The translations under genes were made by a program, and so were the position numbers. DNA of 32,000 bases from Candidatus Heimdallarchaeota archaeon (GTDB lineage: Archaea; Asgardarchaeota; Heimdallarchaeia; Heimdallarchaeales; Kariarchaeaceae). Shown here piece after piece: positions 4,093 to 9,176 of the stretch (positions are counted from its first letter, which is position 1; the number at the start of each line of letters is the position of its first letter). The notes under the pieces are model-generated. The model was given only the letters and a program-made list of their open reading frames with translations. It searched no databases and had not been told where the DNA came from. The DNA is taken from NCBI GenBank assembly GCA_030149205.1, contig JASBSB010000007.1, positions 210,001-242,000 of the forward strand, in the 5' to 3' direction.

Positions 4093-5973
4093 ATGAAAAC
4101 GAAATTCCAAGAAATACTTGAGGGGTCTCATGCTCTCCCCTTTGAAAAAAGGCTTAGAATGGATCTTAAACCTGAAATTATTCCTCCACTTCCTAGTGGT
4201 GAAGAAGCTTTGAAACCTTCTACTAAGGCCGGATGGGAAACAGAAGCAATTAAAAGAGCGATGATAAATAATCTCCACAATGGTAGCAATTGGGAGGAAC
4301 TTTATATCTATGGGGGATCAGGGAGAGTAGCCAGAGATTGGGAAGCCTTTTTCAGAACAATAGAATTAATTGAAAATCTGGAACCGAATGAAACTTTATT
4401 TTTACAATCTGGTGTTTCATATACAAAAACTCTTACCCACAGGCTTGCTCCAAGAGTAGTTATCACAAATTCTTTGGTAGTTCCAAAGTGGTATAACAAT
4501 TTTACTGAATTTGTTAATGCTGGACTGACTGTTTATGGACAAATGACAGCAGGTTCTTTTATTTTTATTGGTCTACAAGGTATAATTCAAGGAACTTATG
4601 AAACAATGGTTGCTGCAATAAAAAAGGCGGAAACAACCACTTCTAGGTCAGATTTAAACATATATGAAAAACAGGTTGTTGTTTCATCTGGACTTGGTTT
4701 AATGAGTGGAGCACAACCCTTAGCCATAAAAATGGCAGGAAAATCATCTATAATTGCGGAGGTAAATATTCACGCCCTAGAGAGGTTATATAAAGAGGGG
4801 CGAGAAAGGGGAACCCCCTACTTAGATGAAATTGCGAAATCCCCTGAAGATGCCTTAAAGATCATTAAAAGAACCGTTGACGAGGGAGGAACCATCTCGG
4901 TTGGGGTGCATTGTAATGCAACTGATCTTTTGAGCTACCTTGTTTCAATTAACTTCACACCAATTGTATTGACTGATCAAACCTCAGCTCATGATTTGAT
5001 TTATGGGTATTTTCCTGAATCTTTAACGTATGAAGAGGCCTTAATTATGCGAGAGTCTAAACCTGATGAATATAAAAAGCTCTCAGAAACAACTATAATA
5101 AAACATGTAAACTTAATGTTGACCCTTCAAATAAGGGGTTCAGAGACGTTTGATTACGGAAACAACATAAGAACACAAGCTTTCAATTTAGGTGTGGAAG
5201 ATGCATACAATTTTGAAGGTTTTGTAGTTCGCTATATCCGTGATTTGTTTTCTATAGGGAAAGGGCCATTTAGGTGGGTTGCATTAAGCAACGACCCGAC
5301 AGACATTCTAACTACAGACAAATATGCAAAAATGCTTTTTGATGAAGATGAGCAACTTGTAAATTGGTTAAACCTTGCACAAAAGTTTATCCCCTTTGAA
5401 AAAGGACTTCCTGCACGAGTCTTCTGGGCAGGTTTTTGGGGGAGGGCTGCATTTGGGATGCTAATAAACAAGCTTGTGCAGGAGAAAAAAATTAAAGCTC
5501 CAATAATTATAGGGAGAGATCATTTGGATGGTGGGTCGGTGGCATCACCTTTTAGAGAAACTGAGGGTATGAGGGATGGAAGTGATGCTATCAGTGATTT
5601 TCCAGTCTTAAACTTGCTTGGAAATGCACTGGGGGGAGCAACGTGGGTGAGTCTACATGGTGGTGGAGGGGTTGGTGTTGGTTATTCAATTCATGCTGGT
5701 CAGGTAATTATAGCTGATGGAACACAACTTAGTCAAGAAAGACTCTTTAGAGTTTTATTATGGGATCCATTATCTGCTGTAATTAGGCATAATGTTTCAG
5801 GTTATAAAAAATCTAAAGAACTTATAGATCAGTTTGGCTTGGTGTCTAAGGAAAATGGTAGAACAACAACTAATTTTCTCGAAATTTATAATAAAATGAT
5901 TGACTGGGTTTATGAAAAGGTAGGTGTGAAGCTTTTTGAACCGCTTCAAAGTATAGAGTTGAAATTATTCTAA
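4093..5973 (+). CDS. hutU: Urocanate hydratase (urocanase) family protein
   Basis: YGGSGRVARDW, GQMTAGSFIFIG, QGTYET, TDQTSAHD, FDYGNNIR, GPFRWVALS, GRDHLDGGSVASPFRETEGMRDGSDA, GGATWVS. ATG 4093 preferred over TTG 4078. Confidence 0.92.
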   Translation: MKTKFQEILEGSHALPFEKRLRMDLKPEIIPPLPSGEEALKPSTKAGWETEAIKRAMINNLHNGSNWEELYIYGGSGRVARDWEAFFRTIELIENLEPNETLFLQSGVSYTKTLTHRLAPRVVITNSLVVPKWYNNFTEFVNAGLTVYGQMTAGSFIFIGLQGIIQGTYETMVAAIKKAETTTSRSDLNIYEKQVVVSSGLGLMSGAQPLAIKMAGKSSIIAEVNIHALERLYKEGRERGTPYLDEIAKSPEDALKIIKRTVDEGGTISVGVHCNATDLLSYLVSINFTPIVLTDQTSAHDLIYGYFPESLTYEEALIMRESKPDEYKKLSETTIIKHVNLMLTLQIRGSETFDYGNNIRTQAFNLGVEDAYNFEGFVVRYIRDLFSIGKGPFRWVALSNDPTDILTTDKYAKMLFDEDEQLVNWLNLAQKFIPFEKGLPARVFWAGFWGRAAFGMLINKLVQEKKIKAPIIIGRDHLDGGSVASPFRETEGMRDGSDAISDFPVLNLLGNALGGATWVSLHGGGGVGVGYSIHAGQVIIADGTQLSQERLFRVLLWDPLSAVIRHNVSGYKKSKELIDQFGLVSKENGRTTTNFLEIYNKMIDWVYEKVGVKLFEPLQSIELKLF

Positions 5974-6774
5974 ATCTTTGTTGAAATCTGCTACCACTTC
6001 TGCAATTTTATAAGTTTCTGATATATTAATTTCAGATATATTCCCCACAATAATTATCTGAGGCACTAATTTCTTATCGCTAGTTTTAGCATACAATATT
6101 TCTTCAATGTCTTTCTTTGATTTTATACCTCCCCCATAAATTGCTCTGTCAACCACAGTTCCTGATTTTGAGCGTTTATTTACTGTGGTCAAATATCTTG
6201 AAATTATTTTAGAATTAAGTTTCTGCTGACCAGATCCAGCTTCCAAATAATATAATTTGAAGAAGTTATTCGAGACTGCCGCTTCAAACCGTTTTGAAAT
6301 CAAAACCTCATCATGATTTTTGTCTGCAAGGGTACGATCTGCAGCCTTACCTCCCATTGGATGATAAGCAACTGGAATTATCTTTGCCTTGTTTGTTTTC
6401 GAGACAACCCATGTAGCAACCTTTGCTTTCATTTTAAGGTATCCACTCTTTGAGTTTATTGGAATAGGGGCAAACACAAATTTTGGTCCTTTAATTAGAT
6501 GGTTTGTTGAACTTGGAAATAGTCCAATATATGATGTTGGTGTGGGCTTTGAGTTTGTTATATTATTTATTGGAGAAAAATGCTTTCTTTTTTGCATTGA
6601 TTCCTCGACTCTATTGTACATGTTGACGATATCTTGCTTTTTGAGGTATTTTTCAGAAGCACCGATTAATGAAAAGGTTGTGTTTTGAAAAACTGCGAAT
6701 ATTTCATAGAATTCATTTGAATAAAGGTCATACTTAGCAGGGTCAGAAAGAATCCCTAAATGAATGGGCATCAT
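5965..6774 (-). CDS. Geranylgeranylglyceryl phosphate synthase (GGGPS, group II-like), divergent
   Basis: HLGILSDPAK (LIDPD-like), GLFP, YYLEAGSG and YGGGIKS phosphate-binding motifs, IIVGN near the C-terminus. TIM-barrel size. Confidence 0.8.
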   Translation of the reverse strand: MMPIHLGILSDPAKYDLYSNEFYEIFAVFQNTTFSLIGASEKYLKKQDIVNMYNRVEESMQKRKHFSPINNITNSKPTPTSYIGLFPSSTNHLIKGPKFVFAPIPINSKSGYLKMKAKVATWVVSKTNKAKIIPVAYHPMGGKAADRTLADKNHDEVLISKRFEAAVSNNFFKLYYLEAGSGQQKLNSKIISRYLTTVNKRSKSGTVVDRAIYGGGIKSKKDIEEILYAKTSDKKLVPQIIIVGNISEINISETYKIAEVVADFNKDLE

Positions 6775-6904: not shown

Positions 6905-7336
6905 ATGAATAAGGTTCCTTGGGTTTTTCCTGCACCCCAACCAAAGTTTGTCTTACCAAGGTTGAAATTTACGATCCCCACAACAGTTCCTACTAATCTT
7001 ATTTTCTTTTTAGTTTATGTTGGTGTTTTCTATGTTTTTATTGGTGGGGTATATGATTTAGTTAATAATCCAATCGCAATTGGAGTTGTGGGTAACACTC
7101 CACTTTTGATAAGTAATCAAGGGGTAGGCTCTCAATTTTTATTGGAAGGAATAGTTGGTGGATTAGTGATGTTTTTAGGTTCATTCGGGCTTTATCTAAT
7201 TCGACAAGCATCTTCTAACCCACATGACACAGAGAATGCCAATAGATTATTCATTTTGGGCGTTTTAACATTGCTATTATCAATTATTTTTATCTATTCA
7301 ATGTATATGGCAAAGACAAGTGGTCGATTATATTAA
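6905..7336 (+). CDS. OST3/OST6-family oligosaccharyltransferase subunit, OSTC/DC2-like (three TM helices, no thioredoxin domain)
   Basis: KVPW N-terminus, GGVYDLVNNPIAIG and SQFLLEGIVGG match the OSTC pattern GGIIYDVIVEPP ... QYIMEG. C-terminal hydrophobic helix ending in M-x-K. Confidence 0.8.
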   Translation: MNKVPWVFPAPQPKFVLPRLKFTIPTTVPTNLIFFLVYVGVFYVFIGGVYDLVNNPIAIGVVGNTPLLISNQGVGSQFLLEGIVGGLVMFLGSFGLYLIRQASSNPHDTENANRLFILGVLTLLLSIIFIYSMYMAKTSGRLY

Positions 7337-7342
7337 GAAGCA

Positions 7343-7801
7343 ATGAGAGAAAACGAAATTTTTCAACATTTGTGTGTTTTTTCTGCATCTTCATTTGAGA
7401 TTCAAAAATATATTGATGAAACTTTTATCAAAAACAATTATCAAAAGACTCTGTTTATAGATATAGATAGAAAACTAAGTTTAAAACAAAAAAGCCATGA
7501 TTTAACTATACGTCCAAATAATCGAGAAGAGCTACTAAAATTACTTATTATTCTTTCTGATAAGCTCATTATAAACATTAATAAAATTATAATCTCAAAC
7601 TTAGCATATTATTTTAGAGATTATGATCCTCTAGACCATCCTGTTATAGCAAACAGAAGGCAGATGGCCTATGTACTTTCGAAATTAAAATCGTTAAAAA
7701 TAGATGTGTTGATATTCCTTCGATCTACCGCTTTTGACCCTGAAAGACCCTTATTTTCTGAACTAATTGATTACTATGGGTTTCAGAAGATTTTATTATA
7801 G
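7343..7801 (+). CDS. Minimal, degenerate RadB/Rad51-paralog-like protein
   Basis: Colinear resemblance to RadB: KTLFIDIDRKLS, IRPNNREELL, KIIISNLAYYFR, IDVLIFLRSTAFD, RPLFSELIDY. No Walker A. Confidence 0.5.
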   Translation: MRENEIFQHLCVFSASSFEIQKYIDETFIKNNYQKTLFIDIDRKLSLKQKSHDLTIRPNNREELLKLLIILSDKLIININKIIISNLAYYFRDYDPLDHPVIANRRQMAYVLSKLKSLKIDVLIFLRSTAFDPERPLFSELIDYYGFQKILL

Positions 7802-7805
7802 GGTG

Positions 7806-8603
7806 TTACTCAGCTAAATTTAAAATTCCATTTTCTATAACCTGACCCAATCCTTTTCCGGTTGAATAATCTAAAAATGACACTTTCAATATTCCATTTT
7901 CAAAAACTTGTGATAATACGGTTTTAGGGTCTTCGTTTTTTATCTTTTTAGAGTTGTATGCCAAAATAAGGTTTATCCTTTCTCTTTTCTCTTTAGGGAG
8001 ATTCTTTAATATTAGGTCTAAATTTGCAATAGATTCAGTATCAATAACAAGGCTCGATAAATTTTTTTCCTTGAGAAAAATAGAATAACCATCTTCTGAA
8101 GTTTGTGTAACTCTAATTCTGTCATAGAAAATATCTATGGTTAATTTACAAATCTCTGCTCGTAAATTTTTATCGTCTCTGGTGTTTAATGATATAACAG
8201 ATAAATATGATTTGAAAAATTTTCGAAATGCAGGTGAATTTGATATTAATAGGATGTTTGTATACCTAAGAGGAAAATTTAGATTCACAGAAAAAGTTTT
8301 TTCAACAGCTGATGCAATAATTCTCTCAACTATTGAAGATATTAAATATACAACATTTGCTTTTCTGACACTTCCTAATTTGTCAATTTCAATCATTAAA
8401 ATATGATCACCGTGAGAGAGGCTCCTTTTTATTAGTCCTGAATCGGCCTTTTCGTTAATTTGAGGGACAGACGGCAGTCCTATTCTCATACCATTCTCTT
8501 CTTTCTTGTTTTGATATAAGTCATATGAAAATTCTATCCAGTAGGTTTTTCTACATTCTGGACAATATGCTTGAATTTCACTGATGAGTGTTATAAAAAT
8601 CAC
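7806..8603 (-). CDS. Hypothetical protein: N-terminal CxxC/HxxH putative Zn-binding domain plus a possible degenerate small-GTPase-fold domain
   Basis: YCPEC ... HGDHILMIEIDKLGSVR. Its GTG start directly abuts the TAG stop of the upstream GTPase. Confidence 0.6.
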   Translation of the reverse strand: MIFITLISEIQAYCPECRKTYWIEFSYDLYQNKKEENGMRIGLPSVPQINEKADSGLIKRSLSHGDHILMIEIDKLGSVRKANVVYLISSIVERIIASAVEKTFSVNLNFPLRYTNILLISNSPAFRKFFKSYLSVISLNTRDDKNLRAEICKLTIDIFYDRIRVTQTSEDGYSIFLKEKNLSSLVIDTESIANLDLILKNLPKEKRERINLILAYNSKKIKNEDPKTVLSQVFENGILKVSFLDYSTGKGLGQVIENGILNLAE

Positions 8604-9176
8604 CTAGCTTAATTGATTAATTTTTTCAATTAACCAATTTATTCCTTCAAAGACACCCGTTCCAAATTTTGCAGATCCTGGAATAATTAAAAAATCTCTT
8701 CCTCTTTGTCTTTTATTAATTTGATATTCCAACATAGCTTCTGTAACAGTATAAGGTTTAAGTGGAATTAAGTCTTGCTTATTTATTAACACTAAAACGG
8801 GTTTGTTATTATTTAGTATATTTAACATATACTCAAAACTTAATTTTGACTTTTCAAATGCTTTCAAGTTTTTATCCCTTTTTATTGTTCCATCTATAAC
8901 ATAAATAATCGCGTCAGCTTGAGTTACAGCCAACCCCCAGAGGGCATTCTTATATAAATCTTGCCCACCCACATCAATTGTAGAAAGCTTCCATTTTCCA
9001 ATACTTATGCCCTTATTTCTAATATCCATCCCTAGTGTCATATCAACCTCAGACACTGTTGTACCCGTTTCTAAATATCTAATTAACGTTGTCTTTCCAG
9101 CCCCTGAAGTGCCAAGTGTAACAATTTTTGCTAATTTGTTTTTATTCCTTCTGAATATAGTATCAATCAGGTTCAT
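8604..9176 (-). CDS. Arf-family small GTPase
   Basis: G1 GTSGAGKT, G2 Thr in MTLG, G3 DVGGQ, G4 NKQD, G5 SAK. Arf-like DVGGQ..LW and GVFEGINWL. Short N-terminal amphipathic segment without Gly2. Confidence 0.92.
   Translation of the reverse strand: MNLIDTIFRRNKNKLAKIVTLGTSGAGKTTLIRYLETGTTVSEVDMTLGMDIRNKGISIGKWKLSTIDVGGQDLYKNALWGLAVTQADAIIYVIDGTIKRDKNLKAFEKSKLSFEYMLNILNNNKPVLVLINKQDLIPLKPYTVTEAMLEYQINKRQRGRDFLIIPGSAKFGTGVFEGINWLIEKINQLS

Follow-up and report, generated by a model that had tools for sequence, protein, structure and literature searches.

An Arf-family GTPase gene and the conserved adjoining gene of a probable pseudoGTPase-like partner with a putative zinc domain in Heimdallarchaeota

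The 32,000 nucleotide (nt) stretch of the Candidatus Heimdallarchaeota archaeon genome analysed in the current work (contig JASBSB010000007.1, positions 210,001 to 242,000, hereafter named the window) carries two adjoining and co-oriented genes, the first encoding an Arf-family small GTPase and the second an unannotated protein (named the partner) in which an N-terminal domain with two putative zinc knuckles is joined by a long helix to a C-terminal domain of GTPase-like predicted fold that is devoid of G motifs. Coordinates without a prefix are positions in the window, and those of all features are collected in Table 1. Three alignments are referred to throughout: A1 (28 sequences of the partner family), A2 (31 homologues of the GTPase) and A3 (21 sequences of the partner N-terminal domain). 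Both open reading frames (ORFs), their coordinates and the CPEC and HGDH motifs of the partner were recovered exactly as described in a first-pass annotation made from the sequence alone.

The orthologous pair was retrieved from eight loci, being the window itself, four further genomes, of which three share its genus and one belongs to another, and the metagenome contigs L018, L019 and L020, the latter containing partner orthologues that are more distant than the genome-derived ones. At each of the eight loci the partner gene is located directly behind the GTPase gene with a spacing of 0-24 nt, and the eight linked partners form a single clade in a maximum-likelihood tree (97/96 support). The flanking genes vary: L018 has a helicase and the PolD large subunit, L019 and L020 have an aminotransferase together with a 2-hydroxyacid dehydrogenase, and others again are present in L002-L004. 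Considering that the arrangement recurs at all eight loci between differing flanks, the adjacency noticed in the first-pass annotation is conserved in relatives and reflects more than chance. The two members of the pair evolve at different rates, with orthologues of the slower GTPase being 63-71% identical (67-73% in the four further genomes) and those of the faster partner 37-43%.

The first-pass annotation described the TAG stop codon of the GTPase gene as directly abutting a GTG start codon of the partner gene. While the genes are indeed tightly spaced and co-oriented, this GTG is situated within a conserved sequence resembling a ribosome-binding site. In seven of the eight orthologous junctions a Shine-Dalgarno-like element, AGGTG[A/G], overlies the stop codon of the GTPase gene and is followed, 4-12 nt further 3', by an ATG or TTG start codon of the partner gene; in the remaining junction GGAGGAGG is present in place of the element. 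The element of the window, AGGTGA, occupies positions 8605-8600, so that the called GTG falls within it, and the position matching the partner start of the orthologues (8594-8592) is ATA. The true start is therefore uncertain by three residues, and may be either the GTG or a near-cognate codon three residues inward. Whichever is used, no more than 9 nt separate the genes, and the operon structure of the pair is not in doubt. The abutment is thus probably to be understood as a ribosome-binding element overlapping a stop codon rather than as a strict TAG|GTG junction. Across the window, one of the motifs GGTG, GAGG, AGGT or GGAG is present within 20 nt 5' of the called start in only three of the 24 ORFs of at least 180 amino acids (aa) (background 15%), a scarcity that fits mostly leaderless first genes or first genes without a Shine-Dalgarno sequence. 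The junction element is accordingly regarded as an internal-operon feature, the support for which is derived from the comparison among orthologues and not from a genome-wide rule, since most window ORFs are without such a motif.

The product of the first gene matches the Pfam Arf profile (PF00025) with an E-value of 3.5e-22 and 79.1 bits (cut-off 22.3), and is the best match to this profile among the at least 25 small GTPases of the genome. All five G motifs are intact, including the Arf-type DxGGQ switch II, and the residues that are invariant in A2 comprise the P-loop GxSGAGKTT, T47, the GGQ of DVGGQ, NKQD and SAK, in agreement with the earlier designation of this protein as an intact Arf-type GTPase. 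Upstream of beta1 a 16-residue N-terminal extension (MNLIDTIFRRNKNKLA) is present, as in Arf alignments, which does not contain Gly2. The best sequence matches in the PDB are Arl3, Arl1, Arf6 and the Asgard protein HodArfR1 (8oul), with E-values of 1e-15 to 1e-14, the top match being the Arl3 of entry 5DI3, and homologues are named in their source records as Heimdallarchaeota or Hodarchaeota "ADP-ribosylation factor-like protein". The Arf profile match, the DVGGQ motif, the N-terminal extension and the Heimdall origin are shared with the ArfR/AArf GTPases of Asgard archaea, which include HodArfR1 (PDB 8OUL) and GerdArfR1 (Vargova et al., bioRxiv 10.1101/2024.02.28.582541; PMC11914678). The window GTPase is therefore a new member of this known kind, and appears ArfR-like as judged by sequence similarity.

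In contrast to the GTPase, the partner is without a family match in Pfam and NCBIfam. An exhaustive HMMER scan of 1.84 billion representatives retrieved 25 proteins of the partner family at E<=1e-3, all of 130-294 aa, the sole named one being a "hypothetical protein" of a Heimdallarchaeota metagenome-assembled genome. Word-index homologue searches are nearly blind to the family, a single sequence retrieving itself only and a profile three proteins. Members were found in 13 of 41 related genomes; of the four taxonomic families sampled, two are represented. A genome contains up to four copies, and that of the window three. The family is small, restricted to the Heimdall group as far as sampled, and undescribed in the literature searched. 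Two very divergent members are placed tail to tail on a metagenome contig (L021:3001-3885, plus strand, and L021:3935-4651, minus strand) with no GTPase nearby.

The N-terminal domain of the partner is modelled as five beta strands with two knuckles at hairpin turns, CPEC being located in the turn between strands 5-14 and 19-28, and HGDH in that between strands 58-63 and 67-73. All four prospective ligands (C14, C17, H64 and H67) are invariant in A3. Across A1, H64 and H67 are invariant, and conservation is at least 90% at C14, C17, G56, D74, G77 and R80, the last three of which are carried by a conserved EIDxNGxVRK hairpin; the loop at residues 35-53 is disordered and variable. The model thus displays the geometry of a two-knuckle, four-ligand zinc ribbon with a C2H2 ligand set, by which zinc would be bound. 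When folded alone, the domain obtained a predicted local distance difference test (pLDDT) value of 79.7, and no relative of solved fold was retrieved for it, Foldseek returning nothing at E<=1e-3 and VIA-align a best Z of 3.8. The helix that follows overlays the Arf N-terminal helix in structural alignments.

The AlphaFold2 model of the whole partner, generated with the family alignment, reached a pLDDT of 82.7 and a predicted template modelling (TM) score of 0.66. In its C-terminal domain the order of elements is beta1, alpha1, a three-strand antiparallel hairpin region, beta4, alpha3, beta5, alpha4, beta6 and alpha5, corresponding to a strand at residues 115-120, a helix at 124-140, short strands separated by tight turns at 147-151, 155-160 and 163-168, and then strand 182-188, helices within 195-207, strand 211-216, helix 226-235, strand 241-245 and helix 249-261. 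Foldseek retrieved 414 PDB matches at E<=1e-3, the best 50 of which are all small GTPases, mostly of the Arf, Arl and Sar kinds (E-values 1.3e-6 to 1e-4, probability 1.0, TM-score by target 0.43-0.57). The VIA-align scan, which is independent of Foldseek and covered 48,161 chains, placed HodArfR1 first (8oul_A, Z 11.1, with 157 residues at a root-mean-square deviation (rmsd) of 4.0, model residues 98-265 aligning with chain residues 2-182), followed by Arf1 (Z 10.8), an amoebal Arf (10.6), Arl10B (10.5) and MglA (10.4). HodArfR1, one of the best sequence matches of the GTPase, is therefore also the best structural match of the partner C-terminal domain, the latter likeness being one of fold and not of sequence or motifs. 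Arf and MglA clusters of the ESM Atlas were returned for the partner model; a feature search of the same resource gave no usable match.

None of the G motifs is retained in this predicted fold. The first-pass annotation had assigned eroded motifs to the successive strands, and these positions agree with the DSSP elements of the model: NILLISNSPAF corresponds to beta1 and the P-loop position, LVIDT to beta4, LILAYNSKK to beta5 and the NKxD position, and FLDYSTGKG to beta6 and the SAK position. Where the P-loop would be, the sequence is S-N/Q/R-S/A-x-A-F, without a conserved Lys, without GxxxxGK[ST] and without a glycine-rich loop; DxxG is absent, NKxD has become N-S-K/R-K with loss of the Asp, and SAK is replaced by D-Y-S/A-x-x-x-G. 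A predicted G-domain fold (to which receivers score close, see below) is thus combined with loss of the nucleotide-binding and catalytic motifs, as in a pseudoGTPase, and we infer that the partner does not bind nucleotide. Within the GTPase-coupled clade 41 partner residues are invariant, those of the C-terminal domain being S121, F126, F129, F130, S132, S135, N140, D188, N217, S218, P226, D245, Y246 and G251. Most of these are located on helix 1 or else at, or shortly past, the C-terminal end of a strand, on the face which in real GTPases holds the nucleotide, and this conserved face may represent a docking or ligand surface of the partner.

Taken as a unit, the locus encodes a real and conserved pair composed of a GTPase and a pseudoGTPase-like protein. 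That the two products also bind each other, as in the eukaryotic GTPase heterodimers to which the first-pass annotation likened the pair, is plausible. When both chains were modelled together with their family alignments, an ipSAE interface score of 0.46 was obtained (0.44, 0.46 and 0.46 in the individual runs, with at least 69% of contacts in agreement and a partner pLDDT of at least 64), as compared to 0.00 for the best of three controls. In the calibration of this tool, 58 of 80 solved complexes and two of 110 mismatched pairs attained the mark, with scores of at most 0.60 accounting for seven of those 80 solved complexes and for both mismatches, counts which, owing to the use of our own alignments, apply only roughly to the present prediction. 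The support was rated as weak by the tool, and the predicted interaction is taken as a weak pointer.

The reading that we prefer, and in which we place moderate confidence, is that the operon encodes a matched binary unit, in which the pseudo-G-domain of the partner, its zinc domain, or both, bind the switch region of the GTPase and control or read its nucleotide state. The first product would act as an active, ArfR-like GTP switch, and the second as its dedicated partner, composed of a zinc-stabilised beta domain, a long helix and a degenerate G-domain for which a lack of nucleotide binding is predicted (a pseudoGTPase of the class-I type). Direct binding of G-domain to pseudo-G-domain would be the likeliest mechanism, with the switch region being contacted by the strand-end face (S121, D188, N217-S218, D245-Y246 and G251) and/or by the zinc domain with its near-invariant R80. 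As a result, the nucleotide state of the GTPase may be held or shifted, in the manner of a guanine nucleotide exchange factor (GEF), a GTPase-activating protein (GAP) or a guanine nucleotide dissociation inhibitor (GDI), or be read out by the partner as an effector. A more specific version, in which the two proteins form a GTPase/pseudoGTPase heterodimer and R80 of the zinc module serves as an arginine finger that, together with the degenerate G-domain, sets the nucleotide state of the ArfR protein, is considered rather unlikely.

Instead of being a direct regulator, the partner could be an adaptor or effector in a larger, membrane-associated GTPase module that also comprises a soluble protein of ~300 aa and a multi-pass membrane protein of ~270 aa, and of which only the pair has stayed linked in the lineage of the window. 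This possibility is suggested by two loci from another taxonomic family (L040 and L041), where a partner-family member of a different clade closes a four-gene operon consisting, in this order, of an Arf-like GTPase (42-45% identical to the window GTPase), a ~318-aa soluble protein, a ~271-aa membrane protein with six predicted transmembrane or hydrophobic segments, and the partner-family member. These loci constitute a second, independent linkage of the partner family to an Arf-like GTPase. A second Arf-like GTPase gene is located ~1.2 kb upstream on the same strand, past a gene on the opposite strand. On L009 and L046, two contigs that end before any GTPase could appear, partner-family members are likewise preceded by homologues of these soluble and membrane proteins, and such homologues are also present around Arf-like GTPases of 50-55% identity in an operon of other Heimdall-group assemblies (L013, L014 and L017). 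The latter has the order Arf, 228 aa (with a helix-turn-helix-like C-terminus), ~285-aa multi-pass membrane protein, 298 aa, second Arf (missing from one of the three loci) and 350 aa, with no Pfam family being assigned to any of its non-GTPase genes. An hhalign comparison of the partner family with the 350-aa proteins at the operon end (probability 14.6%, E 0.0018, colinear over the whole C-terminal domain) is suggestive of kinship with the partner C-terminal domain but not significant.

For the window lineage this alternative is considered unlikely, if not to be neglected, because the pair stands alone at all eight loci of its clade. When single-sequence searches were made with the soluble protein and the membrane protein from the four-gene operon, three of the four found nothing in the genome of the window, and the remaining one retrieved a single weak membrane-protein match (E 7.6e-12, 280 aa, seven segments) that does not adjoin a GTPase gene, although it is encoded ~28 kb from the pair on the same contig. 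The gene of this 280-aa protein directly follows that of an ABCE1-like ATPase and is near one for a Roadblock/LC7 protein (Pfam 6.4e-11). Membership of such a module would in addition be compatible with direct binding of the partner to the GTPase.

Further observations weigh against the preferred reading of the partner as a pseudoGTPase dedicated to the adjoining GTPase. Most partner-family paralogues, including the other two of the window genome, have no small GTPase in the flanks examined, so that the fold may serve a function requiring no GTPase encoded alongside. (In one genus, at L007:1-618 and L008:2877-3548, the C-terminal portion of a larger NKxD GTPase bearing AGNKID is encoded two genes away from a paralogue, with a formiminotransferase-like gene on the other side; the A2 profile does not class this GTPase as a small one.) At the sequence level no similarity between the partner family (A1) and the GTPase family (A2) was detected by hhalign (probability 0.3%), no GTPase Pfam family matched the partner, and PDB sequences searched with the partner-family profile gave nothing meaningful (best E = 1). 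The pseudoGTPase claim thus stays at the level of fold and does not extend to common descent from a GTPase. At that level CheY-like receivers come close in the VIA-align scan, with Z values of 8.5-9.8 and a lower rmsd (3.0-3.3 A), and one receiver cluster of the ESM Atlas has a TM-score of 0.69 when normalised by target.

These values, together with the missing sequence similarity to GTPases, would also be expected if the C-terminal domain were a degenerate CheY-like receiver or generic flavodoxin-like domain with an inserted hairpin and without relation to GTPases, and the partner a protein with a zinc ribbon that acts in signalling or binds nucleic acid and is linked to the GTPase by co-expression only; as judged from the order of elements, D188 and S218 would then occupy the positions of the phospho-acceptor Asp and of the beta4 Ser/Thr. 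We regard this as improbable, seeing that receivers are absent from the best 50 Foldseek matches and align over 112-121 residues only, as opposed to 135-157 for GTPases, which in addition cover the hairpin following alpha1 and the helix preceding the domain. The domain furthermore has neither an acidic pair where beta1 ends nor a conserved Lys past the last strand, and does not match the Pfam Response_reg profile, so that assignment to the CheY-like receivers is rejected while the similarity of the core fold is real. The GTPase assignment therefore rests on the additional hairpin and helix and on a modest margin in score, and, since these elements are explained by a GTPase while the acidic pocket and conserved Lys of a receiver are absent, a GTPase-like fold is judged probable, not certain. 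The proposal in the first-pass annotation that the C-terminal ~150 aa represent an eroded small GTPase is accordingly upheld in so far as the domain (~155 aa) models in this way, with small GTPases as its best listed matches and every G motif gone, and is weakened by receivers being near-equal in score and by the lack of sequence homology; its inference of the fold was largely right. Lastly, an adjacency without functional meaning, in which two unrelated genes share a transcript by descent in close genomes, is very improbable, for although five of the eight loci are from one taxonomic family and such kin are not independent, the pair and its junction element persist between differing flanks, and a second partner clade shows linkage, in an operon of other architecture, to a different Arf-like GTPase.

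Table 1. Positions of the GTPase and partner genes, of their domains and motifs, and of related operons and matches outside the window.
Feature	Position	Strand	Remarks
Arf-family (ArfR-like) small GTPase gene	8604..9176	-	190 aa; G1-G5 intact; TAG stop at 8606-8604
P-loop GTSGAGKTT, residues 22-30	9087..9113	-	G22, S24, A26, G27, K28, T29 and T30 invariant in A2
G3/switch II DVGGQ, residues 68-72	8961..8975	-	Arf type with catalytic Gln; G70, G71 and Q72 invariant in A2
G4 NKQD, residues 132-135	8772..8783	-	Invariant in A2
G5 SAK, residues 168-170	8667..8675	-	Invariant in A2
Shine-Dalgarno-like element AGGTGA	8600..8605	-	Overlaps GTPase TAG stop; contains called partner GTG
Partner gene	7806..8603	-	265 aa as called; GTG at 8603-8601; unannotated family
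Partner N-terminal domain, residues 1-88	8340..8603	-	Five beta strands, two putative zinc knuckles at hairpin turns (model, DSSP)
CPEC, residues 14-17	8553-8564	-	Turn between strands 5-14 and 19-28
HGDH, residues 64-67	8403-8414	-	Turn between strands 58-63 and 67-73
Linker helix, residues 89-109	8277..8339	-	DSSP helix of model
C-terminal domain of predicted GTPase-like fold, residues 110-265	7809..8276	-	Without G1-G5; model and fold searches
Four-gene Arf operon	L040:1596-4760	-	Gene order, homology
Four-gene Arf operon	L041:2869-5741	+	Gene order, homology
Arf operon, other Heimdall-group assemblies	L013:4001-8585, L014:4001-8579, L017:4001-8220		
Weak membrane-protein match	G000:C8:246257-248422 (L048:1405-3570)		~4-6 kb past window end, ~28 kb from pair, same contig

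The preferred reading of a matched GTPase/pseudoGTPase-like unit can be placed beside several known systems, of which ARL13B with ARL3, the pseudoGTPase domains of eukaryotes and the zinc-finger ArfGAPs are the nearest analogies in function. ARL13B, a protein with an atypical Arf-like G-domain, was reportedly identified by Gotthardt et al. in 2015 as a GEF for ARL3 (PDB 5DI3), and so offers a precedent for the regulation of one Arf-fold protein by a second. In ARL13B, however, GTP binding is retained and the sequence is recognisably that of an Arf-family member, whereas the partner has neither G motifs nor sequence similarity and possesses an added zinc domain. Eukaryotic pseudoGTPases, reportedly classified by Stiegler and Boggon, include for example CENP-M and the pseudo-G domains of p190RhoGAP; with these the partner would share a G-domain-like fold, eroded G1-G5 motifs, a predicted lack of nucleotide binding and a role as interaction module, while differing in its archaeal origin, in its fusion to a zinc-knuckle domain and in sharing an operon with the gene of an active GTPase. 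The ArfGAP domain consists of a C4 zinc finger (CX2CX16CX2C) equipped with an arginine finger, and the likeness is restricted to the logic of a zinc module with a near-invariant R80 encoded beside an Arf-type GTPase, the ligand pattern of the partner being C-x2-C-x46-H-x2-H as opposed to C-x2-C-x16-C-x2-C. Identity with ArfGAP was rejected on the basis of this different ligand set and spacing, of the absence of a PF01412 match at E<=0.1 and of the absence of any ArfGAP from the fold search. An operon in which a small GTPase gene is accompanied by that of its dedicated regulator is also seen in MglA-MglB and in GTPases with longin or roadblock GAP/GEF partners, including those of Asgard archaea (PMC10933270), yet the partner model is of neither roadblock nor longin fold, and GTPases of MK-D1 are generally not in operons with their regulators (Tran et al., PMC10933270). 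In the text of the ArfR/AArf papers (bioRxiv 10.1101/2024.02.28.582541; PMC11914678) nothing relevant was found on gene neighbourhood, operon, synteny, zinc or pseudoGTPase, and the literature searched contained no paper combining pseudoGTPase and Asgard. What is new here is therefore the partner family with its putative zinc domain and pseudo-G-domain, the GTPase being of a kind already known.

With respect to the neighbouring genes of the window, a 152-aa ORF (7343-7801, plus strand) that is convergent with the partner gene is without any family match, and the 143-aa membrane protein encoded beyond it (6905-7336, plus strand) displays only a sub-threshold match to OST3/OST6 (E 0.012, 15.5 bits, cut-off 27). 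The 269-aa product of the gene at 5965-6774 (minus strand) matches PcrB/GGGP synthase profiles only weakly (Pfam 1.2e-6; NCBIfam 38.6 bits, cut-offs 113-353) and may be a divergent prenyl-glycerol-phosphate synthase paralogue.

Arf-family GTPases of Asgard archaea are held to be the stock from which the eukaryotic Arf, Arl and Sar proteins arose, and to our knowledge no regulator or effector has so far been matched to any of them. Gene order rarely helps to pair Asgard GTPases with regulators (PMC10933270). The locus described here provides a conserved, compact and tractable pair, of 190 and ~265 aa and both soluble, and is thereby one of the rare cases in which a matched candidate partner can be named for an archaeal Arf. 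Should the two proteins not bind, the partner family would still be of note as an unannotated one that is restricted in lineage, carries a putative zinc domain and has several copies per genome. If they do, the partner would be the first defined partner of an archaeal Arf, and would represent an archaeal GTPase-shaped protein without nucleotide-binding motifs, a class described mainly in eukaryotes so far. Should the zinc module with R80 and the degenerate G-domain in fact set the nucleotide state of the GTPase, the partner would be the first matched regulator of an Asgard Arf, and the system either the prokaryotic equivalent of the control of eukaryotic Arf proteins by zinc-finger GAPs or by other G-domains, or a separate invention of that logic.

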